A DNA stretch of 64,000 nt from Prorocentrum cordatum (GCA_963575745.1 CAUYUJ010000120.1:1-64000), one strand, 5' to 3'. Positions 31,701 to 62,900 are shown, numbered from the stretch's first letter. The notes: generated by a model from the sequence alone, not told the origin. A program made the numbers and translations.

Positions 31701-32380
31701 CGGAACTCGGTCTGCTGCCCGAACTCGGTCTGCGAAACTGTTCGTATTGTTCGAGTCATCCTGAAAGATGCTGTCGGCTTTCTGCACTTAGCTCGGGCTG
31801 TAGGGGGGCTGCAGGGCGGGCAATCACAGGAATCGATTCGGAGACATCAGACGCGTCCGCCTGTCGCATCCAGAGGTCTGAACTCGGTCTGATACTCGAG
31901 CTGGGTTTGCCAAACTATTCGTTGTGTTCGAGTCATCTTGAGAGGTGCTGTCGATTGACGCACGTAACTCAGGCTGTAGGAGAGCTACAGAGCTCGTACA
32001 GAAGACAATCCAGAAGCATCGGGTGGCGTTCGGCTGTTGCATCGAGAGGTCTGAAATCGCTTGGGCTGAAAAACTATTCGTTCTCTGCAATTTTTTTCGA
32101 CATTATATATTGTCAGGAAGCTCTACGAGTCCCCCGGCGGTAAGAAAGGTTGACGGTTTACCGCCGGCGCCCAGTGTTTCAGCTCCTGTCGGGTCTGCTG
32201 CCACGACGCTTGAAGAGGGCTGGGAGCTGGTCAGCCGTTCCCATCCTCGCGTGACGCCCCAGCTTAGGACCGTGGTAGAGGAGGAGGGTAACAGCACAGA
32301 CAGTACGGAGACCATGATGGAGGACATGGAGGAATGCGTTGATTTAGGCTCGGGGAGGCTCGGGTCAGGGAACCATAATC

Positions 32381-33463: not shown

Positions 33464-33620
33464 CTTAAAGGGGGCGGCCCGGGTCCGGGGGCGCCCTGGG
33501 TCCGGGAAAGGCGACGGTTAGCGCCGAATGTTCGGAACACCCGGCGTTGTAGTTTGCGACACGAGGAACGCGAGCGGGGGCGCGGCCGACGGCGGCAAGC
33601 GCGGCCGCAAGGGCGATTGA

Positions 33621-41100: not shown

Positions 41101-41728
41101 ACATAATTACTTCGTAGAGCTCTTCGGGGTGGAGCTAGTTGGACCGGCCGGCCAGAAAGGACAAATTGGTGACTTTTGGTCGGTTTTCGAAAAATTTGAA
41201 AGAGATTGAACCATTTATTTAGAGAAAGCAGATTTTTGCGCGTCGCATTTGCATATAAACTCCTTTCTGACAGCAGCTCAGCTTTCCTGATGCACTTTTG
41301 CATGAGTTGACTTCCAGGAACTGAGCGAATATGAGCATCGACAATATCGAAAATGAAGATGTTCGAAAAATCTATATTTTTTAATTCTGTGTCGATTCTC
41401 AGCACTCTTACCAGTGGGAGGAGCTCTACGAGGTTCCTGGCGGTGACCAGGTTGACGGTTCACCGCCGGCGCCAGTTTTGAGAAACCAGATTTTCGGCAC
41501 CTGTAGGGTTATGGCGCCTCCGTCAGTATAATTTTCAGGCCCATAGGCATTATTATTATGAAAACACTTGGAGTAACCGACTTTTGATGAACACATAATT
41601 GCGCGATGTTCAAGTTTTCCCGATCTTGCCCTAGAGTGAGTCTTTCTGCATATGTACCGAGGAGTGCCGTGCGAGAAAAGAGCTCTACGAGGGCCCCGGC
41701 AGTGACCTGGTTGACAGTTTATCGCCGG
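38140..41728 (+). repeat. Nested hairpin-ended elements (family C, long and short families)
   Basis: Same terminal motifs and 178-bp units as 1-32175. Confidence 0.88.
40007..40407 (+). mobile_element. Short-family (~400 bp) element
   Basis: Flanks GGAGCTA-GT and TTGCCGACCCGAC rejoin to the consensus GGAGCTAGTTGGCCGACCCGAC. Confidence 0.85.
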
Positions 41729-44145
41729 TTTCTGACACATGTTCTTATGCATGGGCTCCAAGGGCGCATATATGAGCCCAGAAGGGAAACCCAGGGACAC
41801 CAGACAATTGTACGCCAACGTCAACGTAACATGGTCGAAGCACTGAAGCACGTCTGGACATCCAAGGTACAGTGATTCACCTTTGCCCCAAAGACACGCG
41901 TGTTGTGAGAGCCTCTTGAGCACCGTCATCATTTCATGTGTTCTATCACTTAGACATAAGAGGTATGAGGCATATCTGCCTAGTGTCTTTGAGCTGTGTC
42001 ATTTTCGGGCACTTCGGTATCAATGTTTCAAGGGTGTTTCTCCAGCACATCGGTGTGAGATGCTCCCGACTGGCCAAGCGCTGAAAGAAGTCACGCACGC
42101 GGCGCACACGCGCCCAGAGAAGCAACTTGCATCTCAGGCGACACGTCGTCGTACGACGCACCCCCTTTCTTCAGTCGTGCACGTTTGAAGGTGTATGGTG
42201 GGCGGATTGGGTGTCTTGGGATATTGCGCGGGAGGAGTGGAGAGCCCCTTCGGGTTCAAGGCGGTGTCCGTGTATCTCTGGGAGAAGGTTGTGCGGCAGT
42301 GGGAGGAGAACGACTATCGGTATGAGTTGAAACCCCCCTTGAGTGGAGGTAGGAGGAGGATTACACATGCTCTTTGGGCGGATAACTTGTAGGTGTGCGC
42401 ACGGTCCTTGGACGAACCTCGGGAGATGATGTCTATGCTCACGGTGCCGTTGGCTCAGGCGGGCCTGCGTTGGAAACCCTCATCGCTTGGATACCTTGTG
42501 GAGGCTGGCCTCGCTGTTCTGATGCCGAGCTTTGAGTGTACGTTCGCCAGATGTCTGTTCTGGGGGTGGAACTTTTCGATGACTGGAGTGATCATCGGGA
42601 CCTACTTTGTCATATGCAACGTGCCAGACGTGCGTGGATGTGTGATGTACAGTTCTATCGCTGTAGACAGTTACCTATGCGTGATCGCTATATGCGCTAC
42701 ATTGCACGGCGGATGAGGGTACCATTCAGAAGTTATATGCGTGGGAGGGACAACTGCTTGTGATTGTAGGGGGGCCTTCGCAAGAAGGCGAGTGAGGATT
42801 GGACAGTGTATACTCAGAGGCGGCTGCGATATGGTCGCCACCACTTCGCCAGGCATGGCTTCCAATCGCTTGTCCAAAGATTTCTCAGAAAGCAGTTTGA
42901 TTGGGCACAGGATGTGGCATCGTTCACTTGTCCGCACTCGCGTGCACCAACGATTGCTTCCACGTCAGTGGAGGAGGCACCAGCCAATCGGCGTCAGCAG
43001 ACGAGGATCTTCCGTGAGTCTGCGAGGGGCCAGCGACAAAGACTTTCGGCAGCCCAGCCCGCGGAGGCACCGACGCCAGCACCACCTGTGTCGGATGACA
43101 TGTTGAGGCCCTTTGTACTTTCACGTGTTGCGATGCTGCGTGGATTGGGGGAGTGGACCGAGAGGAGGGAGGCCATGATTACTGCAAGTAGGAGGACGAC
43201 GGAGATAACCAGACTAAGGGCAGGTGGTTACCTACAGGCTACAGGCCGTGGGACTTCTTATTTGCGCAGGCTGCTGGTGTGAACTGGTGGCACCATCTGA
43301 ATTGGAGCGAACATGGTTTTCGCGAGTTTGCCACTGGTCGACTGTGCGCGGCGGGATTCTCACATATGTTGGAGGGCTCTATCTTAAAGAGGAGGGAAAT
43401 CAGATACACAGAGAGGAGGAGGGGGAGGAGGACAAACAGCCAACACAGGCGGCGCTTGATCGTATTGCCAAGCGCCTTGCTGCCAACTTTGAAAGTGAGA
43501 TCCGCTTCGAACGACGAGGCGGAGTTGCGATGGAGCTTCTAGGTGACTCCATGCTGATAACCAATTGGATGAGGGGAGGGTGGAGCTACAACAACAACAT
43601 ATACCGATCGCAGGTGAGGGAGGTTGTTGACTTGCTAGACGGTGCTTGCCGTAACTTTAATCTGCAGGGCCCTGCCACAGGGTATGTTCTATGGCGTCAT
43701 CACGTTCGTGAAGGCAATGAGCGTGCAGACCGACTTACTTGGGAAATCAGACATCTACCGTTACAATCGAGGTATAGAAGCATTCAACAACATATAAACA
43801 ATACTGAAACATTGATCGCAATCCGTGGTGCGTACGACGGTGGCGTTAGTAGTGCAGGTGCGGGGGGAGGATGGTGGCTGGATGGAGAGTTCACTAGTGC
43901 GCACTCTGGTGAAGGGGCTGGTGATAGCCTGCGCACGTTTACCCGTGCATTGGCGGAGGAGGCTTTCGGCCTGCTTCCCGATGCGACGGTTGCGCAGTGT
44001 GAGCTTGAGGCCGTTTCGAGACTTGCCCGCTCTGCTTGCAAGATACTCCAAGAGTATGACGTTTTTCAGGGTACACCCAACCCGCAGGGGCACCAACCCG
44101 ACCGCCCTTGTAGGGCCCTGTGGTCGGACCGCAATCCGCAAAAAA
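41729..44145 (+). mobile_element. 5'-truncated, 5'-inverted decayed LINE (RT plus RNase H) with ~24-bp TSD
   Basis: Minus-strand RT pieces at 41729-42175 (LIPK..RQICL; DVLQCFDHV). Plus-strand GGVESP, LWADN and RNase H ORF 43224-44207. TSD 41705-41728 vs 44146-44169 (21/24 identical). Confidence 0.85.
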
Positions 44146-47100
44146 ACTTGGTTGACGGCTTATCGCCGGCTCCAAGTAATTGTGCTCGGTTTAATTGGAT
44201 TTCTTGAAATCTGAATGGTCGTTAGAGCTAGTATTTTTCCCCCCCTCTTCGATCTTATGTCCGCTCGCCATCTTGATCTCAGGTCGATCGGGTACATATT
44301 ATTGCCAAAAAGCACTCTGGCGGCGCTGCGTTCCGCCCCGCACGGCCGCCCTGGGCTCCCTGCGCGCGCGGGCCCGGGGGCGCGCCGGTTGGGCGGGCGC
44401 GCGCGCTCGGGCAGCGCGGCGCGCACATGCGCGCGCCACACGCACACGCGCGCACGCGCGCACCACGCGCAAAAACTCGCACGCACGCGCACGGACGTCT
44501 GTACTATGGGTATTATTATTACGCATTGTGGCGTGGCTTGCCGTGCTTTTGGATTGCTACGTGCGCGAGCAGCTGCCTTGTGGTTTCACCTGCTTGCGTT
44601 CGCAGCCGCGCCCGACGGTGTCAGGGCCGCCGTGTGTTCTACTGCTCGGCTATCCGGGTTTTGGACGCCAGCAAATTCGACCTCTTTCCCGCTCGCCATC
44701 TCAATCTGAGGTCGACCGGGTACATATTACTGTCAAAAAGCATGTGGGCAGGATCGATTGCTCAGTGTTCGCTTGACAGGTGCTGTCCTTTTTCTGAACT
44801 TAACTCGAGCTGCAGATAAGCTAACGGGCTGTTCGGCACAGCAATCAGAGAAATATCACTAGGAGCGTTATTCTGAAGTATCTAGATGCCTGAACTCGGT
44901 CTGGCACCATAACTAGGTCAGAACAAATTATTCGTATTCTGGATTTTTTCACAGATGATTATGAGTTTATCGATGTAACTCGAGCTCCAGGTGAGGCACA
45001 GAGGTGTTCGGCAGAGCAATCGGAAGAAAGTCATCGGAAGCGCTAGTTTGAAGTATCTAGATGCCCGAACTCGGTCTGCTAGTAGTACCTGGGTCTGAAA
45101 ATGAATTTGTACTCTGATAGTTCTTCCCAGATGGTGATGAGTGTCTTGATGTGATTCGAGCTGCAGATAATATACATATCTGTTCGGGGCAGCAATCGGG
45201 AGAAAATCATCAGAAGCGGTAGCTAGACGCCCGAACTCGTTCTGCTACCTGAGCTGGGCCGAACAATTATTCTCTCTGCTACTTTCCTATAGTACGATTG
45301 CTTTCTTGAGCTGTAGATGAGCTAGAGAGCTGTCTGGCACAGCCATCGTCAACATCATGAGAAGCGCTCGTCTCAAGTATCTAGATGCCTGAACTCGTTC
45401 TGCTTCCAGAGTTGAATCAAACAACTAGTCGCTCTATTAGTTTTCCCAGACGATGCCTTTCTTGATGTAGCATTTGCAGCAGATAAGATCAGAGCTGTTC
45501 GGCACAGCAATTGGACGAATGTCATCAGGAGCACTATTTGAAAGTATCTACATGTTTGAAATCGGTCTGTTAGCAGAGCTGGAACCAAACAAACTTTTCG
45601 TACTGCTGCTCCTCCTCCTTTTCCTTTTTTACTTCCTCCTTCTCCTTCCTTCTTCTCGTCCGTCCTCCTCCATGAAACCGCGCCCTCGCGCGCGCGGAAT
45701 GCGAGATTGCCGCGCCCGCATTTCAGTCATGTATATCGAGGAAGCTCTACGAGTTCCCCGCGGTAACCAAGGTTGACGGTTTACCGCCGGCTCCCAGTTC
45801 TGGCAATCTCACGACGTCGGTTACATCGAATCGCCCCAGGGCAGCCAGGATGAGGAGGATGTACTGGTAGCGGTGTACCACGCGCGATATGACTCGTAGA
45901 TCTTCGCTAAGAGCGAAGCAGCGAAACTTGAAGGTAATTCCGGCGCGCTGGGGGGCTAAGTGGCAGCAAATCTCGACGGATTTTGTTGCATATGTTCGCT
46001 CGGTTTAAATTCGATTTCTCGGAATTCAACTATTTGGTAGAGCTCTAGAATTTTTCGCTTCATATTCGATCTTATTCCCGCTCGCCATCTTAATCTCAGG
46101 TCGATCCGGTACATATTACTGTCAAAAAGCATGTGGGCGGGATCGGCCGTATAGTGTCATCTTGACAGGTGCAGTCGGTCTTCGGAACCGAACTCGAGAT
46201 GCAGATGAGCTGCAGGGCTGTTCGGCACAGCAATCGAGAGAGAATTATCAGAAGCGCCAGTCTCAAGTATCTAGATGCCCGAACTCGGTCTGCTACCAGA
46301 GCTGGGTTCGAACAACTATTCGTACTCTGCTATTTTTCGAGAACTGATTATGAGTTTATCGCTGTAACTCGAGCTGCAGATGAGCTACAGGGCTGTTTGG
46401 CACAGCAATCGAGAGGAAATCATCAGGAACGCTATTCTCAAGTATCTAGATGCCCGAAATCGGTCTGCTACCATAGCTGGGTTCGAACAACTGTTCATGC
46501 TCTGCTATTTTTCAGAGATGATGCTGAGGTTCTTGGACTCGAGCTGCAGATGAGCTGGAGATCTGTTTGGCACAGAGCCGAAAATAACAATCATCAGAAG
46601 CGATAGTCTGAGGTATCTAGATGCGCCAACACGGTCTGCCACTACAGCTGGGCCCGAAAACTAGTTGTGATCAGGCATTTTTCTTAGAGATGATGATGCG
46701 TTTCTTGAGGTAACTCGAGCTGCAGAGGAGCTACAGGGCTGCTTGGCATAGCAACCGTAATACACTCACTCATCATGGGTGCTAGTCTCAAGTGTCTAGA
46801 TGCCCAAACTCGGTCTGCTTTCGGAGGTGGAACCAAAAACACGATTCGTACTCTACTATCTTTTCAGAGATGACGATGCCTTCCTTGATGTAGCTCGAGC
46901 TGCAGATGATATTAGAGCTGTTCAGCACAGCAATTGGACGAATATCATCAGGAACGCGAGTTGCAAGTCTCTTCATGTTTGAAATCGGTCTGAGCCCAGT
47001 GCTGGAAACAAAGAACTATTCGTACTCCTGTTCCTCCTCCTGTTCCTTCTCCTCCTTCTCCTCCTCTTCCTCCTTCATCTGCTCCTCCTCTTTTTCCTCC

Positions 47101-47590
47101 TGTTCCTTCTCTTTCTCCTTCTTTCTCCTCGTCTTCCTTCTCTTTATCATCATCATCGCCCCTCTTCTCCCCCGCCACCCTCCCCCCTGCAGCTGCGGGG
47201 CTGAGAATTTGACAGGCAGACGCGGCATGACCCACTACAGGTGCGAAAAATACCGGTTCTCACAACGGATTTTCAAATCTCTAACAATATTCGCCCAACC
47301 GCCCCAAAGTTCCCACATTGTCCGCCCAGGCCGGGGGGGCCAACTAGCTCCACCCCGCGCCGGAATTCCATTAGTTCATCGATGCCGAAGAGCTCTACGA
47401 GGTATGTTTGCCCAACCGACCCAAAGTTCCCACATTGTCCGCCCGGGCCGGGTGGTCGAACTAGCCCCACCCCGTGACGGAATTTCTTTAGCTGATTGAT
47501 GCCGACGAGCTCTACGAGGTACTGGCCCCCCAGCGCGCCGGAATGACTCTCTAGCTTCACCGCTTCGCTCTTAGGGAAGCTCTGCGAGTC
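44146..47590 (+). repeat. Diverged long-family (D) elements with degenerate ~178-bp units and CT-rich microsatellite
   Basis: 5' end GACTCGTAGA at 45891, hairpin end 45741-45798, CT tract 47025-47190. Short minus-strand 5' ends at 47220-47590. Confidence 0.75.
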
Positions 47591-47591
47591 A

Positions 47592-48516
47592 CTGTGATCC
47601 CGCCGTGTCTCAGCAGTCGTGCCCCCTTATGGGCAATATGTGTTTCAGTATCCGCCCCCACATTCCACTCCCGATACACCCGCTTCCACGTGCCCCTTCC
47701 CAATTCGGGACTCAAAATATTGATCTGTTGGCTCGTGCCACTAAGGCAGTTAGTTCTGTATGCTGTTGATGATGCGCTCATATCTATGTATTTTTATATA
47801 TATATTACATCTCATTGTAGCGGCGGTATCTTCCATTCAGCCGACTGCCTACAATTTGGCTCTCACCTGTAATCTCCAAAAATATGCCATCGGGGTTGAG
47901 TCGCCAGCGAGTCTCGTCTTCCTTCAGAGCGGCCACTCTTTTCGCTGATCTATCCAGACCCTTTTAAAGCTGGTCCTCCGTCATCTCCTCTCCCCGACCG
48001 CCCTGAGATACCTTTCCGAAATCGGATCGCGCAGGGGGCAACCCTCCAAGACATAGACTAACTGGAGCTCTCTCAAAGTACCTCACAGTACTCCGTAAGA
48101 AATCTTTCCAAGCAGTTTCTGTCCAGATCATATCCTGAGTCCACGGGGGCCCCCTGGTGAGTTCGAGGAGTGACCTTCGCGGCGGTAGCCCGTATAGTAG
48201 TTTCTCCACAGCGGGCCCTCGCAATAGCCTTGGCCTCCTGGGAACCGAAGGACCTGCATAATGCATCGTTGCTCCGTCCAAAGACCCGACGCATGCGACG
48301 TGCACAGGCAGCTCCGCATAGAAGCAGTCGGCCTGCCCCGACGACCCCGGCAACGCGCGCGTTTGGGAGCAGGAAGCACTCAGGGTTCAGGGGGGTCAGA
48401 AAGGCCCACAGCACGTCTCCTCATTCTCGTAGTCTCACGACGTCGGTTACACCGAGTCGCCCCAGGGCAGCCAGGATGAGGAGGATGTATTGGTAGCGGT
48501 GTGCCACGCGATATAT
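47592..48516 (-). pseudogene. Decayed 3' fragment of a fourth LINE of the same clade
   Basis: Minus strand reads GLDRSAKRVAA..LEITGESQIVGSRLNG..KRVYREWNVGAD, matching ALDRIAKRLAA, ELKGDSQCVIRRLEG and VYREGNAEAD in the other LINEs. Confidence 0.7.
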
Positions 48517-50057
48517 GACTCGTAGAGCTTCGCTAAGAGCGAAGCAGCGAAGCTAGAGAGTAATTCCGGCGCGCTGGGGGGCTACTTGGCAACAGCAAAT
48601 TCGGAAGTTTTGCATATTTTTGTTCGGTTTAAATTCGATTTCTCGGAATTCAACTATTTGTTAGAGCTCTGGTATTTTGGTCTCTTCATATTCGATCTTA
48701 TTCCCGCTCGCCATCTTAATCTCAGGTCGATCCGGTACATATTACTGTCAAAAAACAGGTGGGCGGGATCGGCTGTTTAGTGTCATCTTGACAGGTGCAG
48801 TCGTTCTTCTGAACCGAACTCGAGCTGCAGATGAGCCACAGAGCTGTTCGGCACAGCAATCGAAAGATAATCATCAGAAGCGCCAGTCTTAAGTATCTAC
48901 CTGCCCGAACTCGGTCTGCTACCAGAGCTGGGTTCGACAAACTATTCGTGCTCTGATATTTTCGAGACATGATGATGAGTTTATCGATGCAATTGAGCTG
49001 CAGGAGCTACAGAGCTGGTTTGCACAGCAATCGAGAGGAACTCATCCGGAGCGCTAGTCTCAAGTATCCATATGCCCGAAATGGGTCTGCTACCAGAGCT
49101 GGGTTCGAACAACTATTCATACTCTGCTATTTTTTTGATATGACGCTGAGGTTCTTGATGTAACTCGAGCTGCAGATGAGCTGGGGATCTGTTTGGCACA
49201 GGAACCGAAAAGCAATCATCAGAAGCGATAGTCTGAAGTATCTAGATGCACCAACACGGTCTGTTACTACAGCGGGGCCCGAAAACTAGTTGTGCTCGGT
49301 ACCTTTTTTAGAGATGATGATGGGTTTCTTGAGATAACTCGAGCTGCAGATGAGCTACAGGGCTGCTTGGCACAGCAATCGTAAGACACTCGTTCTGAGC
49401 GCTAGTCTCAAGTTTCAAGATGCCCAAACTCGGTCTGCTTCCAGAGTTGGAACCAAAAGCACTATTCGTCTTCTGTAGTTTTTTAAGAGAAGACGATGTC
49501 TTCCTTGATGTAGCTCGAGCTGCAGGTGATGTTAGAGCTGTTCAGCACAGCAATTGGACGAATATGGCCAGGATCGCGAGGTACAAGTCTCTTCATGCTG
49601 GAATTCGGTCTGCATCCAGTGTTGGAACCAAACAACTATTCGTATTCCTGTTCCGCCTCCTCTTCCTTCTCCTCCTTCTCCTCCTCCTCTTCCTCATTCA
49701 TCTGCTGCTCCTCCTGTTTCTCCTCCTGTTCCTTCTCTTTCTCTTCCTTTCTCCTCATCTTCCCCCTCTTCATCATCGTCATCATCATCGTCCCTCTTCT
49801 CCCCCATCCACCCCCCCTCTGCTCGTCGTCCTCCTCTCCCTGCTCCCCCTCCTCCTCCTCCTCCTTCTCTTCCTTAACCTCCTCCATCTCCTTGTTCTCC
49901 TCGCTCCTTCGTCTCCTCCACGCCCCCTTCCATGAAACCGCGTCCTCGCGCGCGCAGAATGCGAGATTGCCGCGCCCGCGTTCCGTTCATGTTTATGGAG
50001 GCAGCTCTACGAGTTCCCGGCGGTAACCAAGGTTGACTTGGTTGCCACTGGGGCTCG

Positions 50058-51705
50058 GTGGCTTCCTCGCGCGGCTCGAGCAGCATTGCGCGGTCAGGGC
50101 CTGGCCCGCCGCGCGGGGGGGCGCGGCGATCGGGCCGCGGGCGTCTCCAGCGTCTTCGGCGAGTTCGAGGCTGCTGGCCGCCTGCATTGTTTGGTATTTG
50201 TTTGTGTGCGTTGCTTGCCGCGACATTTTGTCTGCGGCCCCGTGCTGTTCGGGACGAGTCAGTATCTGCAGATCTGGACCGTTGGGGATCTAACTTTGGT
50301 CACTGGGAGTGGGGCTATCTTGCCAGACAGGTTGGCGTGCCTCGTGGGACTATCTTGCCAGACAGGGACTCCCTGGTTGACGTATCATCTGGACCTCCTG
50401 ATTTGTGTCCAACTCTACCCTTTGATCCTGTTGCCCCATGCGACTTTCGTCAGTTGGGATCTCTTCTGCAGAAGAAACGGACTCGTGAAGATCGTTCTGG
50501 TGTTACCCCTTGTGTTAATCCTGACGATAAGATGGCCACTGCACTTGGTCTTGCTGCCCCAGCGCAATCCGACATGGCGGTGGGGGAGACACCTGCTACT
50601 GTTGATGGGCTTGCAGGGAAGGCTGACGAGGAGGATGAGGACATGGTTGCTGTTCTGAATGAAGATCTTGATGGGGATGACCGTGGGTCGATGTCTCGCC
50701 GTGGCTTGTTGGGTGAGGGAGGTGGGAAGGCTGGGGGGATGGACATGTTCGCGTTCATGAGGCTTGAGTTTGAGAGATTGCACACCTGCTTCAAGACAGA
50801 GCTCCAGGCTAATAGAGTGGAGGTCACCGCTGAGATCAAAACCACTGTGCAGCAAGAAGTTGCGCCTGTTCGTTCTGAGCTGCAGGAGTTGAGGGATCGT
50901 ATCGGGCAACAGGATGTGAAGATCGCCAATATACAGCGTGGTGCCTCGTCGTGTGACGATGCCCAGAGTGCTCGTTCTGGTGTCTCCACTCGTGCGTCTG
51001 CAGGTCCTCAGGTGCGTGCTACCCCTGCTCCCTTTAGTCCGTCATTCATCTCGATCCAAGGCTGGACTAGTGGGGGCCCGAAGGATGTTAAGAGCCGTGC
51101 TAACAATGTGATGGATGGAGGTCGGGCGGGGAGAGTTTCTCAGGCTTTAATGGAGCATGTTTCTGCATCGCGTGAGAACCAAGAGACTAAGATCTTTGAC
51201 CGTACTCGTACCCTGGCGGAACTTACTAACAAGCCCTTTGGGCTATTCCGTATTCGCATCTACTTCCTGAGCTCGACGCCGAAAGAGACGGTCTGGGAGA
51301 TTCGTGTTGAGTGGGCTAATGCATTCAATAGTAAGTCGGTGGCCATTTCAGCTCCAGAGGTGATGAGCCCGTTGCTCGATAATGTCCGCGTCGCGTTCCA
51401 GTGCGAGGTGCCACCGTGGAAGACTGAACAGGTTCATGCTGGTAAGAAGTTTGTTGCGACCTTTTTCAAGCGTAAGTCTGTCTGTGGCATGCACTGGATA
51501 CGTCAAGGTGCAGTATGATCGTAACCCTTCTGTTGCCTGGGCCTGGGCTTACCCTCATGGGCGTCTCAATGCTGATGGTAAGTTCTGCCTGGGTGCCTGG
51601 GCGCTGCAAGATGGGTGGACTCTTCAGGCATCAGAAGTTACCAAGCTGGATCCCAGTATTGATGCAGTTGCGTGGCAGTCGGCTTTGAACAGTAAGTCGT
51701 GGTGA
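50058..51705 (+). pseudogene. LINE ORF1 with predicted coiled coil; one frameshift near 51500, true start uncertain
   Basis: 486-aa ORF with heptad-like VRSELQELRDRIGQQDVKIANIQ, directly upstream of the endonuclease. Confidence 0.6.
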
Positions 51706-51734
51706 CGACGGCTACCTGAGCTACTCCTCTGTGG

Positions 51735-54700
51735 ATGGAATGGCCGCCGTATGGGTATCGTTGCGACGGAAGCTTTCCACCGCATGTCCAACTTGGGCTG
51801 CCGTTTGTTTGCGTTGCAGGAGTGCCAATGGATGTCATCAGTTGCTGCTCTCCATGCGGGTTTGATTGCATATTCTCCTCTCTTGTTGCTGCTGGCGAGG
51901 GCAGAGCTGGCATCTTCTTTGGTGGATTTCTGCGTGCGAGTTTCATTGGGCATCGTGAGGGTAGCAGGTCTTGCATTTGTGCCTTCCAGGGGCTCCTCTT
52001 TGTTTCCGTCTACTTGCCGCATCGTGAGACAATAGGTAAGGCGCGCGGTGAGCAGCTAGAAGCGTTTGGGATGTACCAAGACATTTTGACTAACATGACG
52101 GGTGATGTCATGGATCTAAAACGTAAACATCGTATCACGAAGATGTTCTGCGTGACCTGTATGCTCGCTCCCTTGTCACTGGTATGGCTACGCTCAAGCT
52201 CTCTCTGGCTAACACGTTTGGGGATCGAGTCGCTACTAGCCGTTTACCGTCGGGTCAGGAGTCAGTCTTGGACTATCTTGCTGTGCCGAAGTCGTGGTCG
52301 TGCTCACCTGTGGTGTCTTGGTTGTTCCCGCGCGCTTGTCGGAATCTGCCGAATGTGGAGATGCTCTGGAGTGACCACAAGCTGTTATCGTTGCGCATTC
52401 CGTCTCCTGTGCAGTTAGGCGGCCAGCGCCCCAAGTCCTCGAGTAAGTGGAGGGTGGTTGCCCGGAGGGAGGTTGACCAGGCGCGTCTGTTTCACCATGC
52501 ACTGTGCCCCGATGGTTTCGAGAGGCCTGTACCTGCTGTTTGTAGCCCGCGTTATCGTGTTTGCTCTCGTGGACCGTCAGCCTCTGGGGCTAAGATGAAG
52601 GAGGCTGCTGTGGCGAGCCAATCGTGCCATGTGTTCGAAGGCCCGTCGGATCTCTTCCCGGGGTTGTCTGAGGAGCAGGTTCGGTTCCGCCGGGAGCATT
52701 ACCAGCGTCACAGAGATTGGAAGCGGGGGCTCATTGAGGAGGAGGAGTTCAATAGGAGTAGGAGGAGGTGGACGGCTATCAGAAGGTCGTATCGTAGGCA
52801 GCTTATTGTATATCGTCATCGTGAAGGGCTTAAACATGAGTCTCTGGTCACGCACATGGAGGTGTGTGGGGGATGCTGACGGAGGATCGTTCTAAATGGG
52901 TGGAGGGTCTATCTCAGCATGCCAAATCAAAGTACGAGGATGAGGAGATGAGGATCCTGAATAACAGTTGTCTTGAAGAGCTTCGTGTACGTGCTGATTG
53001 GGCTGCCTCTGTGGGTTCCAGTGGGCCTCGTGAGTGTCCGATCTCAATGGCGGTGCTTCTTCGTGCGCTTTCTAGGCTCAAGGAGGGCCGTGCTGTGGGA
53101 GCAGATGGGATACCTTGCACTGTTCTCAAATCCTTGGCATGGTCTTCTCTTCGTGTGATATCATCGTCGTTCCCGTTACTTTATCGTCGTGAAGTGTCAT
53201 CGCCAGATTCCTGGCGCCAGTTACGTGTAAGCCTCATGTTGAAGGGTCCCAGGTTTCGCCGTTTTGGAGAGTCTCGTGCACTCGCAGTTCTCAGCGTATT
53301 CAGTAAGTGGTATTCGTGCTGCCTCACCCTGTTATTGGACGAGCATGTTCGTCGTGCTCTGCCGTGTACGGGCTGCAATCTCTACGGATTCTGCTCTGGC
53401 CACCGTTTCCGCGAGATCACGGCGGGCCTCAATGTCTTGGCTCATCACTCGAGGCTTTGGGGTAAAGATCAGAACGTCTTCATTGCGAGTCTGGATGTTG
53501 GGCAGGCGTTCGACCACTTAACGATTCCTCTAGCTAGTGCGAGCCTGCAATGGTTACAATATAATGATGAGTTGATCTTCGCTCTTATGGAAGGTGCAGT
53601 TACTAATGCCGCTGACTTTCAATTTCAGGAGGTTCGTTCGCATCCGATGCCCTGGGATTCGTGCATCCGTACTGGGTCTCTGGAGGGCCCACCGTTGTGG
53701 AATGCGCAGTGTATCAGGATGTTTGGGCCTGTATATCAGAATTGGGAGCGCCTGGGAAAGGGCCTTGTCTTGTCGGCGGAGGCTGGAGGCATCTGTGTTT
53801 CTCACTTTGTATGGGCAGACAACGTCATTCTGGTGGCGGGCTCCCTCCCCATGTTGACCTCGATGATCGTCGATCTAAGCCAGCCCTGTACCGCGGGAAA
53901 GGGAGGGGGATCAGAACATCTCGGTTGTGGGCGGGTCGCGCTCGTTCGTTGACGTGGCTGTGGATGATGGTCGCAAGAGAAATCGCAGGCAGGAAATTGG
54001 TGAGATGCAGAGGCAGGCTAAACGTGCCCGTGGGACCTTGTCTCAAAACACTGTCCGTGTGCGTGATGCCTTTGAGCCGTCCCGTGCTGTGCCACCGCCT
54101 GAGAAGAGACGGAGGCTGCGTTGGTCCCCCGAGCCTGTGGCCCCATGTGTGTCCAGCTTTGCTCAGTCTCGCCTGTTGATGTTGCACGCTTCGGGTTCGT
54201 GGACGCGGGCTCGCGATACCCTGATCCATCTTGCTGGGGCCAAGGAGGCTCGGGCGTATACCCGCTTGAGGGGCCAGAGTACGAACCTGAAGGGGCTCAC
54301 GCCGTGGCACCTTATCTTCGAGACGGTGGGGGGCGAACTGTGGCAGTGTAACCTGAGTTGGTGTGAGCACGGCTGGTTACCTTTCGTTCGTGGCGTTTGT
54401 GGTCACTTTGATTTGCCTGATATCCTGCAGTGGTGTGTACTTAAAGACCCCCATCCCTGGAACCCTAAGGAGAAGGAGGATGAGGAGGTGAATGTGACGG
54501 AGGAGCAGAAGGCTAAAGCAGATGATAAGTTAGCTCAAAGACTGGGAGAGTGTACCTGGGAGAGTGTACCTGGGAGAGTGTACCTGGGCATCTTGCGGTT
54601 GAGCTGAAGGGTGACTCGCAATGTGTGATCCGACGGCTGGAGGGATTATATTTCACGGGGAACATAGGATATGCGTCCAAGGTGGCGGAAATGCAGAACC

Positions 54701-55164
54701 TTTTGTGTGATCCCTCCGTCTCCTGTCTAATCCGTCCTCCTGAGTATGGTCGCGATATCTTTAAGTGGGTGTATAGGGAAGGAAACGCGGAGGCTGATGA
54801 AATGACCTGGAACGCTCGGACTGGCAATTGTGGTCTCTGGCATGACGACGACTTTTTGAAATTTATCAAGTTGAACGCAGTTCTGATCGACTGTATCCGT
54901 GGTTCTTTCGACGGAGGTCGTTCCCAACATGGTGTCGGGTGTGGCTGGGTGCTTGATGTGAGGTTTGCTTCTTTCTCTCGCAATATTCTTCCCCCCTCTT
55001 CCTCTATCGTCTGTGGCTGGCGCCGTGTTGCCTCTGAGGCCTTCTTTCTCCCCTCCTCCTGCACTATCGCATCGGCTGAGCTGTCTGCCGCCCACCGGCT
55101 CCTCTCTGCAGGAGTTCTTGTGATTCTGCAAAAGTCAGGCTTCATAGGCATGTGTAGCTCGTAG
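51735..55164 (+). pseudogene. LINE ORF2 (APE endonuclease, RT, permuted RNase H), multiply frameshifted
   Basis: APE: ALQEC, SVYLPH, LDYL, SDH. RT: AVGADG, LDVGQAFD, CIRTGSLEGP, WADN. RNase H: GDS, YREGNAEAD, FDGG, AELSA. Confidence 0.9.
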
Positions 55165-55659
55165 TCTGGACGTGAGCACGTCCTGCCATGACTCTACGCA
55201 AACGCAAACGCAAAACCAAGGTTGACGGTTTTCCGCCGGCTACCAGTCTATGTTCCTCACCTCAGGGTCCGCCCCCTAGCCCACCACCTCAGCCCCCTCG
55301 TCAACATCGCACACCGTGCATACAATATGTTTTGCAAAACACCACTGCTCATATAAAGTAAGTTGCACAAGTGACGGGTGGCAGGAGCTGGGCAGTAGAG
55401 AACGTGCATGTCGAAACCGGGCTCTCCAATCTTCGGCCCAGTCCTCCGCGGGCCGCTTCCGTCGACAACGCATTGCCGGTGGAAATCTCCCCTCCTCCGC
55501 ATGTATCGTCAACAACTTCAACGCATGTGCATCGCATGTTACACCCTCGATGCCGCGCAACAAGTTACTGCGTATGCTGATATAATATATATGCTACTTC
55601 ATCGTTAACAAAATGAATAGGCTCACGTAAAAGGATCCGTCCATCCAACAACTTTTCTT

Positions 55660-58600
55660 TGCCTCGGCCAATCGTGCAGGCGCGGCAATCTTGCATTCCG
55701 CGCGAGTGAGGCTGCTATATCCTGGAGGAGGACGCGGAGGAGAATAATGAGTGAGGAGGAGAAGGGGCTCGAATAAAATAGATAATTTATGATGATCTCA
55801 TAAACAGTTAGCAGAGTAGAGATAGTTGTCAGGTTCCAGCTCTGGCAGCAGACCGAGTTGATGCATCTAGATACGTAATATTTTAGCGTTCCTGATGGTT
55901 TCATTTCGATTGCTGTGGCGAACAGCTCTGTAGCTCATCTGCAGCTCGAGTTAAGTAGAGAAAATCAGCATCATCTCTTTTTAGAATACATAGCAGAGTG
56001 CGGATAGTTGTATTGTCAGAGCTTTGGTAGCTGACCCAGTTCGGGCATCTACATACCTGAGATTAGCGCGTCTGACGATTTCCTCTCGATTGCTGTGCCG
56101 AGCAGCTCCTTGGCTAATTTGCAGCTCGAGTTAAGTTAGGCAAATGCTAATCATATCTTTGTAAGCAGCAGACAACGAATCGTTTTTTGGTTTCGGCTCT
56201 GGTAGTAGACCGAGTTCGGGCACCTAGATACTTAAGACTAGCGCTCCTGATGATCTCCTCCCGATTGTTGTGCCGAACAGCTCTGTAGCTGTCGAGTTAG
56301 ATAAATAAATCGTCATCATCTCCTTAAGCAATAACAGAGTACGAGTATTTTTTGGTCCCAGCTCTGGTAGCAGACCGAGTTCGGGCATCTAGATGCTTGA
56401 GACTAGCGCTCCTGGTCGTTCCGTTTCGATTGCTGTGCCGAAAAACTCTGTAGCTCATCTGCAGCTCGAGTTAAGTTAAGAAAACCGACAGCATCTGCCA
56501 AGATGACACTGAGAAGCCGATCCCGTCCGAGTGCTTTCAGACAGTATCAACCCGATCGACTTGAGATTGAAATGGCGAGCAGAAGTGAGATCGAAGATGG
56601 TGGACAATCTCAGAACTCCAGCAATTGTTGAAATTCGAGAACATAGTTTTAAATAGGCCAAACCAAAACAAAACTGGGGGCCGGAGGTGGGCCGTCAACC
56701 TTGGTTGCCGCTGGGAACTCGTAGAGCTTCCTTCTGATGTGCATGAGTGGCGTGCGGGCGCGGCAATCTCGCGTTCCCCGCGCGCGAGGGCGCGGTTTCG
56801 TGGAGGAGGGCGTGGAGGGGAAGAGCGAGCGAGGAGGGGGGGGGGAAGGCTGAGGAACACAAGCAGGGGGAGGAGAAGGGGCAGGAGAAGGAGAAAAAGG
56901 AGGGGGAGGAGAATGAAGGGGGGGGGATAACGAGCAGGAGGGGGGGGAAGGGTGGAAGGGGAAGAAGGAGGTGATGATAATAATGGTGATGAGGCGGGGG
57001 AGGGAGAGGAGGAGAAAGAGAAGGAGGAGGAGGAGAAAGAAAAGAAAAAGCAAATGGAGAGGGAAGAGGAGGGGGAGAGGAGGAGGGGGGGGGAGGAGGA
57101 GAGGGAGAAGGATGAGAAGAAGGATAATGAGGAGGAGGAGCAGAAGAAGAAGAAGGGAATCTCCTGTTCAGCGGTCTGCTTCCAGGCTCCTTGGCTTGCC
57201 TATAACTCCAATTATGTGAAATCCAACGCCGGCTCTCATAAAACATAATTAGTACATGAACGCAACTAATTATTTGATTGCAGTTTTGGTAGCAGACCTC
57301 AGGCGTTTAGACAGTGTCGATTGATGTGCATCTCAGCTCCTTCGCTGGCCTAGAGCTCGAATGTAATCAGGAAACGAGGGCCATCTCTCGTGCAGCGTTT
57401 ACATTTCGAATAGTTTTCCAGTTGCAGCTGCTGTTGCAGGCCAAATCCGACGCCTCGATACCGCAGGCGCCTGTACCTGGTGGCCTTCTGCTTCTCAAAG
57501 TGCTGTTCTGCTCGCAGCCTACAGCCCAGATGCAGTAGAGAACACAATCAGCAGCTCTCATGCAATAGCAGAGCACGAATAGTTCTTTGATTCCAGCTGT
57601 GGTAGCAGACTGGGTTGCGGCATATAGATACTTGAGAGTGGCACTGCTGATGATGCCCTTTTGAGTGGTGTGCCGAGCAGGTCTGTGGTTCATCTGCAGC
57701 TCGAGTTATTTAAAGAAAATCATTCTTAAACAAAAAGTAGCAGATCACGAATAGTTTTTTGGTTCCAGCTATGCAAGAAGACCGAGCTCGGGCATCTAGA
57801 TACTTAATACCAGCGCTCCTGATCCTTTTCTTTCGATAGATGTGCCGAACAGCTCTGTCGCTGATCTGGAGCTCGAGTTTAGATAAGACCATTATCAGGA
57901 TCGTAAGACAATTACCAGAGTACGAATTGTTTTTGGTTCCATCTCTAGTACCAGACCGAGTTCGGGCATCTAGATACTTCAGACTAGCGCGACGGATGAT
58001 TTCCTTCGACTGCTGTGCCGAGCAGCTCTGTAGCTCGTCTGTAGCTCGACTTTAGTTGAGAAAACCGACAGCACCTGCCAAGATAAGTCTCAACGGCCGA
58101 TCCCGCCCGCGTGCTTTCTGATAGAAGTATCTACCCGATCGGCATGCAAGCAAGATGGCGAGCGGGAGTAATATCGAATATGGGTAGGCGAAATATTAGA
58201 GCTCTAACGAATTGTTGAACTTCGAGAAAACGATTAAAAATAGGCCAAGCAAAGACAAAACTTCAAACTAGCCCGCCGGCGCGCCGGAATTACTCTCTAG
58301 CTTCGCCGCTCCTCTTAGGGAGCTCTACGAGTCGCATCCGTCGAGATTTTTGTCCAGCGCGCCAGAATTTCCTGGGGCCGGCGGGAAACCGTCAACCTTG
58401 GTTGCCGTCAGGAACTCGTAGAGCTTCCTTGCGATATGCGTGAAGTGCATGCGGGCGGGGGAATCTCGAATTTCGCGCGCCGCGCGAGGTGCAGTTTCAC
58501 GGAAGAGGACGTGGAGAAGAAGGGTGATTGAGGAGAAGAAAGAGCTCGAATGAAATAGAGAAAACGATTTGTTTATGTATAGATGTTGTAACAACAAAAT

Positions 58601-58794
58601 AATGTATAATAGCAAAACAGAGTGCGAACAGTGCTTGGTGCTTGGTTCCAGCTCTAATAGAAGACAGAGTTGAGGCATCTGAATACTTGATACTAGCGCT
58701 CCGCATGATGTTCTTTCGATTGCTGAGCCGAACAGCTCTGTAGCTCATCCGCAGCGCGATTTGAGTTCAGAATTTAGCATGTACATATATATAC

Positions 58795-58831
<37 letters not shown>

Positions 58832-59901
58832 GGTATATTCAAAAAACAAAAAAAGCAAAGAGTACGAATAGTTGTCTGGTGCTAGTTTTGGTAGCAGACC
58901 GAGTTTGGGCATCGAGATACTTGAGACTAGCGCTCTTGATGACTCCCGTACGGTTGATCTGCCACTAAACAGCTCTGCAGCCCATCTGCAGCTCGAGTTA
59001 ACCAAGCTGATAAACTCATCATCATCTTAAAACACAGCAGCATACGAACAGTTTGTTATACCAGCTCTGGTAGCAGACCGAGTTCGGGCATTGAGACTAG
59101 CGCTTCTGATGATTATCTTGCGATTTCGGTGCCGAACAGCTCTGTCGCTCATCTGTAGCTCGAGTTAAGTTCAGACAATCATCGTTATCTCTTCGAGAAT
59201 TAGCAGAGTACGCATAGTTTTTTTGGGGTCCCAGCTCTGGCAACATACCGATTTCAGACATCTAGATACTTAAGACTAGCGCTCCTGATGATGCCTTTTT
59301 CGATTGATGTGCCGAACAGCTCTGTAGCTTATCTGCAGCTCGAGTTAAGTGGAGAAAACCGACAGCCTCAATATCACACTCAACAGCCGACCCCGCCCAC
59401 GTGCTTTTTGAGGGTAATATCTACCCGGTCGACCTGATATTAAGATGGCGAGCGGGAATAAGACCGAATATTAGTACAATACATATTAATGCTTCAATGA
59501 ACTGTTGAATTTTGAGGACTTCAATATTTCAAAAAAGACAACATCCGTCGGGATTTTTCGGGCCAGCTAGCCCTCCACCGCGCTGGGATTATTCTCTAGC
59601 TTCGCCGCTTCGCTCTTCGGGCAGCTCTACGAGTCATTCTCTAGCTTCGCCCCTTCGCTCTCGGGGGAGCTCTACGAGTCATTGTCCGCCTGGGCTGGGT
59701 GGGCGCACTAGCTCCATCCCGCGCCGGAGTTCCTCTAGCTCGTCGATGCCGAAGAGATCTACGAGGTACCCTTTAGCTTCGCCGCGTCGCTCTTCGGGAA
59801 CCTCTACGAGTCATGTTCGCCCAACCGGCCCAGAGTTCCCACGTTGTCCGCCCGGGCCCGGTGGGCCGACTGGGAGCCCGCGGTAAACCGTCAAGCAGGT
59901 T
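55660..59901 (-). repeat. Diverged family D elements in minus orientation with GA-rich (56800-57155) and (TA)n (58782-58831) microsatellites
   Basis: Reverse-complement hairpin ends at ~56672-56732, 58372-58428 and 59869-59901. Stacked 5' ends at 59590-59812. Confidence 0.8.
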
Positions 59902-62900
59902 CTTTGCGGTCGACTGTGCAGGCTTTCCAGCCTAGTCGGAGCAAGAGGCGGGCGCATCGGGAGCAGGCGGAAGCCTCGCCGATCCAAACGATCAGAGGCG
60001 TAAGCCAGCTCTTATTTGGAGGATGAGAGGTCAAGCACACACACACACGACACACACAGGCAAGGCGTGAGTGAGCACAATCACTTATTCACATCATGTC
60101 CTGTCCGGAATACGCATGTACAACCCGCGGCACAATCAGAATCGTATGCTCAACGGCCGAGATCTCGGCATCTGTCACTGTCGAAGTTGGGTCAAGCGAG
60201 AACGCCGCACTATACACCTCCGTCCAGATAATATCATGGCTGAGTGGCTGCCTTGAGAGCCTCGATATACGTCCAACATCTATCCAGCACCCGACTCCCA
60301 CGCCGTCGCAAGAGACGCCACAATCGAATCCAGCTCTGATGGCGCAAACGCGAAACACCTGATCTAACTGTGGGGCGTAGGGCCCAATCCTGTCCCGAAA
60401 CACTGGTGGCCCGACACGGGCCGTATGAGTGAGTACATCTGCACGCATGTTCCATTCCCTGTATGTGTGGTCAACAATTTCCCTCCCATGAGAGGCAGGC
60501 CTAATTCCGAATCTCTGACACATGTTGTCTAGTTGGTTAATCATTCTGTTAATCCTATCTTGATAAGTGCGATTTAGCACCCTCCAGACACCCTGAAGCC
60601 AAGACACCACCAGAAGACTGTCCCCAGAGATGTACACCGGAATCCCGAAAGAGTCGAGATCGTACACAACCCCCTTCATTTTTTGTAACGCAATACGTTT
60701 GGCCAGTTCGTCGTTGAAAGCTGGAGTCCCCTTTTGAGCCCCATATGTGTGTAGGTCGTTTTGTGTGATAGTATGCACCTCCTGCAGGGCCCCACCTGTT
60801 GTACCGTACCCTTTTCTCTTCTGAAAATAGCTCAGCATCGTCCGTGTACACATGTGCTCGCAGAACTGAATGTAAGCTGCATCTGTCGGCACAAAGGACT
60901 CCCGCCACTTGAGTCCGTAGAATTCACAGAAAGAAAATAGCCAGCATCTCTGGCCAATAGCTCTACCTGAGCTGATATGTCTCCTCTTGAGCTGTGAAGC
61001 CTCTTGGAAGCGAAATATCCCCCGCAGGAACTCAGAAGCATCCGTCCTGAGTCTGTCCCACAGTGGGCCATATGCAATCGTAGTCATGTGGTGGTCTCGC
61101 CAGTTACGCTGCGTCGAAGAAATGTCCTCATGAGAATCAGCACGCAAGATATAGATAAAATTTGCAGCATCCTTGGCGGAGTTCCACACCATACGGAGAA
61201 AGCGCTGCACCAACGTCGCAAATCCGTAGGATCGAAATTGCTCTCTGGCCTCATGGTACCGTCGTCGGTTCCAGTCCGCCATCGTCTCCTCCTCCCTCCT
61301 TGGCCGTCGAAACATACGGCACAAACGCCAACCCTCGAAGGCATTGAGCATATGTAGTGAGGAGGTATCTGCAGTACAAGTCTCCAGACAATACAATGCC
61401 ATACTCTGCACCTTATCCTGATAACGACAAACTTTATCACGAACAGCAACCGCTCTGTTACGAAAGAAATCCGCCTGTCCGATGGAACAAGCACGAGCCT
61501 CTTTGATGCGATACTCTACATTAGGATGTGCAGGCAATAGGTAGGTATAATATATCTCATGACCCAATACTTTCAATCTGCACACACGTCGAAGACTAAA
61601 GCCCTGATACCCAGAGCATGCAGGAATAATCAAATCCTCACTGGCAGGTATATGTCCATCTCCGTCCACTCTCGCATTTTCCCCACATGTCATGTACAGC
61701 AGGCTGCTATCCTTCCACCTCATCCCCCAGTCGTGTAATGGTAGGGTTAGATCGTGAATCATCTGAGCCAGCATGGTTGAGGAGGCAGACACAAGGTAGC
61801 AATTGTCCGCCCACACAATGTGGTTCACGACTGTCCGTCGCTCATACTCTCCACAGACACCCTCCAGCACATACCCCACTCCTCGACTGTCCCACTCCCG
61901 AAATATTGGTCCCACATGGCACATGTGATAAGGTTGAAGAGAAGAGGCCCCTCAGGGCCGCCCGTCCTGATACAGACGTCCCAATTGATATTGTGAATAG
62001 CCATGCCCTCGACAACTAACGACCCCGTAGTGCAAACCAATGGTGCAAGTAACGCATACTGAAGATAGACAAGAATATTGGCATGGCACATAGCTCTCTT
62101 AGCGTTTTGAAGGCTGCAGTGGTCAAACGCTTGTTTGATATCGGCATTCGCAATATGGACCGTTTGATCCTTTCCCCAGACGTCCCCATGTTCAGCAAGA
62201 GCCTTGAGGGCCCCCACAATTTCCACAGTCTTACGTCCCTCCTGGAAGCCGTAGATGCCCAGAGGTCCCATGAGCCCAGCCCGAGAGACAAATTGTTCGA
62301 CCAAGATCACCACACAAGCATAGTACCAACGGCTGAGACTGTTTTGCAGACAGAGGTACCGTGCATCTGTCAATGATGTCAAGCTCGGCAGCTTGGGCAT
62401 GAAGGCGATCAAAATCTGCCTCCAGTCCTGCGGAAACTGCCGTGTCAATCGAACTATCCCATCAAACATCCGAGCTACACTGCGCAAAGTCGCCCACGGC
62501 AACACCTTGAGTAGTTCGCAAGGCAGCCTGTCGGGACCTGTGGCGCGCGTGGACTTGAGACGTGACCGTGCCTGGCACACCGCCGCCATTGTCAGTCCTT
62601 CTGTGCAGTACCCATCACATAGGTTCTGTTGTGCATCCTTCCTCAACTCCTCCAACATCTCCACATCCCGTCCTCTGACCTCCTCCGAAGTAGATCTCTG
62701 TCCGGTGTACGCTCTGATCTCCTCCGCCCACTCCTCCGTGTCCTCTGATATCCGTCCCTGCACAATAAGATGCTTGATGCTGTGACGTACTTTGCGCCTG
62801 CAAGCTGGGGAGGACCACGCGGCCAACGCCGCGCGATATTCCCTCCGGTGTCTGTTGGCACGTCTGCGCAAAGTGGGTACGTCCACTGACACAGGCAAAG

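Follow-up and report, generated by a model that had tools for sequence, protein, structure and literature searches.

Three divergent LINEs share one insertion position in the terminal palindrome of a Helitron2/Helentron-like element of Prorocentrum cordatum

In a 64,000-nucleotide stretch of Prorocentrum cordatum DNA (GCA_963575745.1, CAUYUJ010000120.1:1-64000; the whole of it hereafter 'the window'), three divergent long interspersed nuclear elements (LINEs 1, 2 and 3) end at the same position, and in the same orientation, within the 3'-terminal palindrome of an abundant transposon, which we refer to as the host and assign, by its termini, to the non-autonomous Helitron2/Helentron-like elements. 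Judging from these three insertions, the best explanation, and a likely one, is site-specific LINE insertion into the palindrome. The terminus is a probable new target class for site-specific LINEs of the apurinic/apyrimidinic endonuclease (APE) type.

Three LINE 3' ends meet the host palindrome at one position

The right half of the host palindrome, TTGACGGNTTNNCGCNGG, is present in the 64-kb window in 43 copies with at most two mismatches, as compared to 0.49 expected from shuffled sequence, and this count was reached in none of 100 shuffles; 39 of the 43 right halves lie on the plus strand. The window is repeat-dense eukaryotic DNA, a transposon graveyard. As judged by a scripted test, 40 of the 43 right halves run leftward into the host's own sequence: 38 pass a strict test for the left arm together with the inverted repeat GCTCTACGAG, and in those at 6754 and 58395 the left arm is mutated or deleted, yet the host's own upstream sequence is retained. 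The remaining three, with neither left arm nor host sequence upstream, are exactly the three LINE junctions.

LINE 1 ends at 44145/44146 (...CCGCAAAAAA|ACTTGGTTGACGGCTTATCGCCGG, the tail at the junction reading ...CCGCAATCCGCAAAAAA|ACTTGG...), LINE 2 at 55213/55214 (...ACGCAAACGCAA|AACCAAGGTTGACGGTTTTCCGCCGG, the tail at the junction reading ...ACGCAAACGCAAACGCAA|AACCAAGG...) and LINE 3, on the minus strand, at 59902/59901 (...GACCGCAAAG|AACCTGCTTGACGGTTTACCGCGGG, the host side beginning AACCTGC). Compared to intact copies, all three junctions fall after CCGGCGGT, i.e. CCGGCGGT|AACC, within 1 nt, with LINE 1 maybe carrying one additional base; the orientation of the LINE equals that of the host in all three cases, and all three tails end in CGCAA(A) or CGCAAA-type units. 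Direct reading of the sequence thus agrees with the first-pass annotation of the window, which had placed the junctions at 44146, 55214 and 59901 and in host orientation. The same annotation had put the insertions in the loop of the hairpin; the shared position stands, but in the fold the junction is found at the stem/loop boundary rather than in the loop proper, at the loop-proximal end of the 5' arm of the palindrome, after T8 of the arm in the stem CCGGCGGTAA/TTACCGCCGG.

All three of the LINE 3' ends visible in the window are at the palindrome position; two further LINE pieces (47623-48134 and 55321-55674) have no visible 3' ends and stand outside this count. Under uniform insertion (43 sites, a 3-nt tolerance corresponding to agreement within 1 nt, two strands, 64 kb) the chance per insertion is ~1.0e-3, and the joint chance is ~1e-6 for two more after the first and ~1e-9 for all three. 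Other insertions in the window are located elsewhere: 5'-truncated host copies and a 7.8-kb retroelement-like insert (32176-39984) follow host 3' ends and do not lie inside palindromes.

One public sequencing run, X1, the only one found, accounts for 37% of the words sampled from the LINE 2 region. Among the X1 contigs listed, a single one has a LINE 3-like end at 59902, with a longer tail (TCCGCAAAAAA on the LINE strand) followed by CC, which is a weak sign compatible with the same target. Across 50000-64000, the summed contig depth in X1 is higher over LINE 3 (326-1250) than over LINE 2 (3.4-50), this depth not being a measure of copy number.

The insertions carry footprints of target-primed reverse transcription

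LINE 1 (41729-44145) is flanked by a 24-bp target-site duplication (41705-41728 versus 44146-44169) that is identical at 21 of 24 positions; the three differences are all transitions, and the rare variant TTATCGCCGG (TTATCGCC) is found in both copies. The host copy upstream of LINE 1 keeps the whole palindrome and lacks the last 8 nt. For LINE 2, the duplication AACCAAGGTTGAC (50025-50037 and 55214-55226) is identical at 13 of 13 positions; LINE 2 is preceded by the host body, the inverted repeat and CCGGCGGTAACCAAGGTTGAC, and past it the host resumes in register with AACCAAGGTTGACGGTTTTCCGCCGGCTACCAGT. Both duplications, including the rare variant, had been called in the first-pass annotation, as a perfect 13-bp and a ~24-bp repeat, and both hold. 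The 5' end of LINE 3 must lie beyond the window, because LINE 2 has ~1.5 kb of open reading frame (ORF) 1 upstream of ORF2, and hence LINE 3 offers no visible 5' junction or duplication.

While LINE 1 had earlier been pictured as a simple 5'-truncated copy, the stretch 41750-42167, roughly its first 0.45 kb, is inverted: residues 493-649 of the related protein P0004 match the minus strand, and residues 674 to the end match the plus strand from 42228 (tblastn). In the inverted piece, the 3'-most LINE position adjoins the flank. An arrangement with an inverted 5' piece whose 3'-most position is at the flank is the signature of twin priming, and it shows that in LINE 1 the top-strand nick served as the second primer.

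Taken together, the footprints of target-primed reverse transcription (TPRT) are present: duplications matching at 13/13 and 21/24 positions, tails of CGCAAA units, and the truncation and inversion of LINE 1. Given the duplications and the twin-priming inversion, these are real TPRT insertions into an intact host terminus. LINE insertion parts the host's inverted repeat and left arm from its right arm and terminus, by 2.4-5.2 kb. The suggestion in the first-pass annotation that the LINEs might also hitch-hike is speculative. Coordinates of the insertions and their parts are collected in Table 1.

Table 1. Host copies, LINEs and LINE fragments in the window
Feature	Position	Strand	Details
Host copy receiving LINE 1	41477..41728	+	5'-truncated; whole palindrome, lacks terminal 8 nt only; upstream duplication copy 41705-41728
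LINE 1, inverted 5' segment	41729..42200	-	RT part; tblastn, P0004 residues 493-649 at 42128-41750
LINE 1, direct 3' segment	42228..44145	+	C-terminal part of RT, WADN at 42375; RNase H-like domain 43377-44081; tail ...CCGCAATCCGCAAAAAA
Rest of LINE 1 host terminus	44146..44177	+	Downstream duplication copy 44146-44169, plus CTCCAAGT
Reference intact host 3' terminus	45740..45798	+	3' asymmetric terminal inverted repeat GCTCTACGAG, palindrome CCGCGGTAACCAAGGTTGACGGTTTACCGCCGG, terminal CTCCCAGT; DNA fold -9.9 kcal/mol; among the 40 host-continuous copies
Additional LINE fragment, C-terminal domain region	47623..48134	-	tblastn; host elements on both sides, no visible 3' end
Host copy receiving LINE 2	48433..50037 (start approximate)	+	Family with ~170-bp central tandem repeats; includes upstream duplication 50025-50037; same terminus intact at 45700-45798
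LINE 2	50038..55213	+	Full length, 5176 bp, several frame breaks; tail (ACGCAA)3
LINE 2 ORF1	~50037-51518	+	493 aa, no Pfam match
LINE 2 APE remnant	~52148-52387	+	
LINE 2 RT	52855-53883	+	WADN at 53812
LINE 2 RNase H-like domain	54559-55149	+	
Rest of LINE 2 host terminus	55214..55247	+	Downstream duplication AACCAAGGTTGAC 55214-55226, right arm, CTACCAGT
Additional LINE fragment, post-RT region	55321..55674	-	tblastn, P0004 residues 834-951; abuts 3' end of LINE 2-bearing host, no visible 3' end
Host right half and terminus downstream of LINE 3	59869..59901	-	AACCTGCTTGACGGTTTACCGCGGGCTCCCAGT
LINE 3	59902..64000, cut by window end	-	tblastn, ORFs; 3' untranslated region 60091-59902 ending ...GACCGCAAAG
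LINE 3 rest of RT and RNase H-like domain	Frame 61951-60092	-	620 aa; WADN at 61813
LINE 3 APE and N-terminal part of RT	Frame 63972-61828	-	715 aa
LINE 3 ORF2 start codon	~63951	-	
RT, reverse transcriptase.

The first ~30 nt of LINE 2 (50038-50070, TTGGTTGCCACTGGGGCTCGGTGGCTTCC) resemble the reverse complement of the host left arm and 3' inverted repeat, so that the LINE 2 start and the host upstream form a fold-back around GGTTGAC; the local alignment score of 30, as compared to a maximum of 28 in 500 shuffles, is borderline. The fold-back might have arisen by template switching, or it may belong to the LINE 5' untranslated region. The two additional LINE fragments bracket the host copy that bears LINE 2 (~48433 to 55247) and may represent the two parts of an older LINE that was interrupted when this host inserted, the numbering across a poorly conserved linker giving no firm join.

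The host has the termini of a Helitron2/Helentron-like element

Alignment of the flanks of the 43 copies defines a common terminal module of ~55 nt that runs GCTCTACGAG, 4-6 nt, CCGGCGGTAAC, loop, GTTTACCGCCGG and (C/T)NCC(C)AGT; past this end the sequences diverge, and the module is common to several families with different bodies. The 3' inverted repeat GCTCTACGAG precedes the palindrome by 4-6 nt and the terminus is located 8 nt past it. The palindrome folds into a 10-bp stem, CCGGCGGTAA/TTACCGCCGG, with optional inner ACC/GGT pairing, at -9.9 to -14.9 kcal/mol. Full-length copies start immediately after the CCAGT of the preceding copy with (A/G)ACTCGTAGAGC, the reverse complement of the subterminal GCTCTACGAG. 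This 5' inverted repeat, 1-2 nt from the 5' end, pairs with downstream bases, the 5' hairpin folding at -8.9 to -14.6 kcal/mol. Many copies are arranged head to tail, 5'-truncated at differing points and with exact 3' ends.

Asymmetric terminal inverted repeats (ATIRs), two hairpins and 5'-truncated 'one-ended' copies are the defining features of Helitron2 (PMC3627910). For Helentron/HINE elements, PMC4067079 places the subterminal repeats 2-4 nt inside the 5' end and 38-60 bp inside the 3' end, with a palindrome 8-35 bp from the latter, and also describes central repeats. As these sources go, the host shares with Helitron2/Helentron elements (HINE, DINE-1-like) its 5' repeat and hairpin, a 3' repeat upstream of the palindrome and, in one family, central tandem repeats (PMC3627910, PMC4067079). 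Because of its ATIRs, two hairpins and one-ended copies, we classify the host as a non-autonomous Helitron2/Helentron-like element of the rolling-circle type, an assignment that supports the first-pass view of a rolling-circle-like host. Unlike Helitron2/Helentron elements, it shows no evident preference for inserting at T-rich or TT sites. The window yielded no Rep/helicase gene, and Helitron2 and Helentron are therefore indistinguishable for this host; eight ORFs of 202-421 aa, taken from the 29 in 1-41000 that reach 150 aa, gave no Pfam match at E ≤0.01.

A scan of metagenome contigs with an exact pattern for the right half returned 123 matches in 120 loci. Twenty-nine of these, in 26 loci, are true host termini with inverted repeat, left arm and right half, and the other 94 are chance matches. 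The 29 termini are almost invariant (upstream consensus CCCGGCGGAAACCAGG); since 26 loci carry it nearly unchanged, the host terminus is deeply conserved across environmental eukaryotes, and its ~55 nt, nearly constant in these contigs, make it a useful marker for this transposon family. In, for example, L009, L015, L017, L053, L060 and L072 the module reads GCTCTACGAG, then CCGGCGG(A/T)AACC(A/T)GGTTGACGGTTTACCGCCGG, and the element bodies are unrelated. A search of Rfam with 12000-33000 (E ≤0.1) returned no family for the conserved terminus, and a search of the literature for its motif strings matched only unrelated primers.

In one host family, ~170-bp tandem repeat arrays (44700-47000, 48800-49600 and 55800-59300) precede a CT-rich low-complexity tract (GA-rich on the other strand) that is followed by the 3' terminus; the arrays resemble the 'central repeats' described for HINE/DINE-1-like elements. 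At 29506-29560, a plus-strand host copy is broken inside the palindrome loop (CCGGCGGTAACCTGC|) and joined to the 3' end of a minus-strand copy. Its absent right half was not found nearby, and the junction resembles a rearrangement more than a clean insertion.

The three LINEs are divergent members of one clade

LINE 2 has the layout ORF1 followed by an ORF2 with APE, RT and RNase H-like domains, and in LINE 3 a single frameshift near 61900 separates the 715-aa and 620-aa frames. As judged by their domains, all three LINEs are classed as APE-type retrotransposons without long terminal repeats, with APE and RT in one ORF. Pairwise protein identity among them is 27-35% over segments of 58-283 residues (tblastn). 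The first-pass remark that they share little beyond motifs was correct as to their divergence but overstated, given these segments. The tree of the C-terminal domain is unresolved except for the pairing of LINE 3 with P0004, rather than with LINE 1 or LINE 2, which has weak 84/86 support; LINEs 1-3 are independent, old lineages of one divergent clade. The first-pass reading of the targeting as ancestral is a tentative one, drawn from three elements in one window.

An exhaustive HMMER search of 1.84 billion representatives returned 595 matches at E ≤1e-3 and 13 at E ≤1e-30. A few of the best matches exceed 1200 residues (P0004, P0005 and P0021), and P0001 was the one relative added by a separate homologue search, a further such search returning only the query. 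Among the relatives, P0001, P0004 and P0005 score above the cut-off for Pfam RVT_1; P0021 and P0063 fall below it, and P0063 also has an Exo_endo_phos match of 23.6 bits, just short of the cut-off of 24.5 bits (E 5.1e-5). For the window LINE ORFs, Pfam gave only a sub-threshold RVT_1 match, LINE 3 as a single sequence scoring 16.2 bits. A 10-sequence profile, A1, matches human L1 ORF2p over residues 38-710, from APE through RT, at E 2.3e-22, and also R2 RTs, exonuclease III (E 2.6e-4) and residues 66-136 only of RNase H. The relationship to L1 is remote, as phmmer with the single LINE 3 sequence found no match in PDB at E ≤1. The LINE profile found nothing in viral contigs, and in genome contigs one weak, unrelated RT match in a bacterial metagenome-assembled genome (E 8e-5).

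The RT active-site box is WADN in all three LINEs (at 42375, 53812 and 61813) and WADN or YADN in the relatives; asparagine stands where the usual YxDD/FADD box has its second aspartate. Downstream of the RT, the C-terminal domain (60092-60814 on the minus strand, 43377-44081 and 54559-55149 on the plus strand) carries GDS...H..RE.N..AD before DGG..G.G...T..AEL. Residues D65, D126, D164 and E217 (numbering of the LINE 3 C-terminal domain) are invariant in 8 of 8 clade sequences and come in permuted order relative to RNase H. An AlphaFold model built on the 8-sequence alignment (predicted local distance difference test 77, predicted template modelling score 0.73) runs strand, helices, strand, helix, then three long strands and a helix, which is the RNase H order cut and rejoined. 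With VIA-align, RNase H chains match model residues 49-140 only (Z 3.5-3.7), and positions 63-120 of the 123 in Pfam RVT_3 match the C-terminal domains weakly (E 0.011-0.2). Foldseek found no meaningful match for the C-terminal model (template modelling score ≤0.28). Comparison of the second half of the domain with two canonical LINE RNase H domains by hhalign was not significant (E 0.2), and phmmer with this half found no RNase H in PDB. Canonical LINEs among the distant matches (P0140 and P0153) match Pfam RNase_H positions 2-126 in normal order. We therefore offer a circularly permuted RNase H as a reasoned hypothesis for the modelled domain, and as no more, because the fold and profile searches back its first half only.

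Other content of the window

The 7.8-kb insert at 32176-39984, located between two host copies, is GC-rich (62-68% GC) and has long plus-strand ORFs; one of them is gag-like and has a Cys-rich knuckle, and an RT-like stretch (TMYVDDGS) and a possible RNase H motif are also present. The retroelement-like ORFs at 32-38 kb gave no Pfam match at E ≤0.01; the insert is probably a DIRS/Ngaro-like or other divergent retroelement.

A model for insertion, and its alternatives

Site-specific insertion could proceed as follows. The endonuclease of the element would nick the bottom strand opposite CCGGCGGT|AACC (bottom strand 5'-...CCTTGGTT|ACCGCCGG-3'), and the freed ...GGTT-3' end would prime on the A-rich end of the LINE RNA. 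A top-strand cut 13-24 bp downstream would then yield the target-site duplication, and the orientation of the LINE would be set relative to the host. The site would be picked by the element's own APE domain, possibly aided by the DNA structure of the palindrome. The specificity may be clade-wide, with the multicopy transposon terminus serving as a harmless landing site.

Several observations weigh against this explanation. The insertions number only three and lie within 18 kb of a single window, and none of the 29 metagenome host termini is interrupted by a LINE, so that the association is seen in this window alone. The host is so abundant here that structural or regional bias could contribute. 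The host-to-inverted-host junction at 29506-29527 also breaks in the palindrome loop, 6 nt away, and the palindrome is perhaps generally fragile. The three tails are not identical, and the nick is ambiguous by 1-2 nt because A residues come from both the LINE tail and the target. Finally, the site specificity of the endonuclease is putative.

The strongest competitor is a structural hot spot, where the palindrome extrudes or breaks and funnels in whatever LINE weakly prefers TT|A-type sites or primes independently of an endonuclease, the specificity residing in DNA structure and host abundance. In its favour, the site lies at the stem/loop boundary of a palindrome with a 10-bp stem (-9.9 to -14.9 kcal/mol), the nick in the bottom strand, GGTT|A, is similar to the T-rich|A sites that L1-type endonucleases prefer, and a non-LINE rearrangement at ~29520 also breaks in the palindrome loop. 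However, the agreement of three nicks within 1 nt is tighter than a fragile loop would give, the 13- and 24-bp duplications and intact 3' tails look endonuclease-dependent, and the other 40 palindromes and the non-LINE insertions (bar the ~29520 junction) show nothing at this position. We consider a hot spot unlikely. Simple coincidence, i.e. non-specific LINEs landing in the commonest sequence of a host-saturated region, is scarcely credible: host termini are indeed very dense, with 43 in 64 kb, but the same nucleotide and strand were hit three times, at ~1e-6 to 1e-9 under uniform insertion.

One could also suppose that the half-palindrome and CCAGT end belong to the LINE, as its 3' untranslated region or by habitual 3' transduction, and that the hosts are SINE-like partners on the LINE tail (SINE, short interspersed nuclear element). 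The head-to-tail host arrays with fixed 3' ends and variable 5' truncation do superficially look like retroposition, and the LINE 3' flanks are all one kind of sequence. However, LINEs 1 and 2 have the host left arm and 3'-ATIR directly upstream, where the sequence found downstream is duplicated (24 bp for LINE 1, a perfect 13 bp for LINE 2); both arms and the ATIR are present in the host families and in all 29 relatives from metagenomes, and the LINEs have the right half only; CGCAAA-unit tails are absent from host copies; and the host has Helitron2/Helentron hairpins and asymmetric repeats, for which 'one-ended' 5'-truncated copies are described (PMC3627910). This shared-module idea is very improbable. 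The first-pass annotation had itself raised a hairpin half derived from the LINE 3' untranslated region as the case that would overturn its claim, and the duplications largely rule it out. A SINE-like host was rejected in view of the duplications, the two arms with ATIR, the missing CGCAAA tail and the Helitron2/Helentron hairpins. We also rejected a nick made by the Rep protein of the host, as Helitron termination is understood to take place at the 3' terminus and not inside the palindrome.

Site-specific insertion may be extended to a bolder picture: an old, undescribed LINE clade that has an xADN motif at the RT active site and an RNase H that is circularly permuted, and that inserts obligately into the 3'-terminal palindrome of Helitron2/Helentron elements. 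It would be a hyperparasite that tracks, across protist lineages, a transposon terminus ranking among the most conserved, maybe by reading the extruded hairpin, and that inactivates the host termination signal with each insertion. We put this forward tentatively, as doubtful in its full extent. If site specificity is true, the window LINEs would be a third lineage besides Tx1 and R1, with a new class of target, the terminal palindrome of a rolling-circle transposon; the target would be compact (~34 nt), possibly read as structure, and easy to test in vitro; and the insertions would amount to transposon-on-transposon parasitism disrupting the termination hairpin of the host. For RNA-templated insertion that can be programmed and is directed to 'safe' multicopy sites, site-specific LINEs are the natural models. 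Two apparently unusual enzyme features of this poorly sampled clade, the RT YxDD box with N for the second aspartate and the candidate permuted RNase H, merit biochemistry.

Comparison with known site-specific LINEs

In the literature searched in full text, with Repbase Reports and subscription journals outside it, we found no LINE targeting a Helitron, Helitron2 or Helentron terminus. Kojima and Jurka (PMC4640811) include transposons among known LINE targets, and the APE-type groups with target specificity that they name are the Tx1 and R1 clades. Like Tx1L and other Tx1-clade LINEs (Keno, Kibi, Koshi, Mutsu and Dewa), the window LINEs encode an APE and occupy one position of a multicopy sequence, and the target of Tx1L is also another transposon. 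Tx1L reportedly inserts into Tx1D in Xenopus. Unlike in the Tx1 clade, the target is a Helitron2/Helentron-like terminal palindrome, the C-terminal domain is RNase H-like and the RT carries WADN; the likeness is a functional one. Tx1-clade ORF2 proteins have a C-terminal CCHC zinc finger.

With the R1-clade LINEs (R1, TRAS and SART) the window elements have in common the APE type, a precise bottom-strand nick in a repeated target, a fixed orientation and short duplications. Site specificity in the R1 clade is reported to reside largely in the APE domain (PMC1919474). While the targets of R1, TRAS and SART are ribosomal DNA or telomeric repeats, here the target is a transposon terminus and the top-strand nick is variable (13 and 24 bp), the comparison being one of features. 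The closest solved structure is human LINE-1 ORF2p, which the profile matches from APE through RT (E 2.3e-22). LINE-1 also resembles the window LINEs in TPRT, variable duplications, 5' truncation and twin-priming-type inversion, as its mechanism is generally described. Unlike the window LINEs, however, L1 is weakly site-selective, and its ORF2p has no RNase H domain and is understood to carry FADD where the window elements have WADN.

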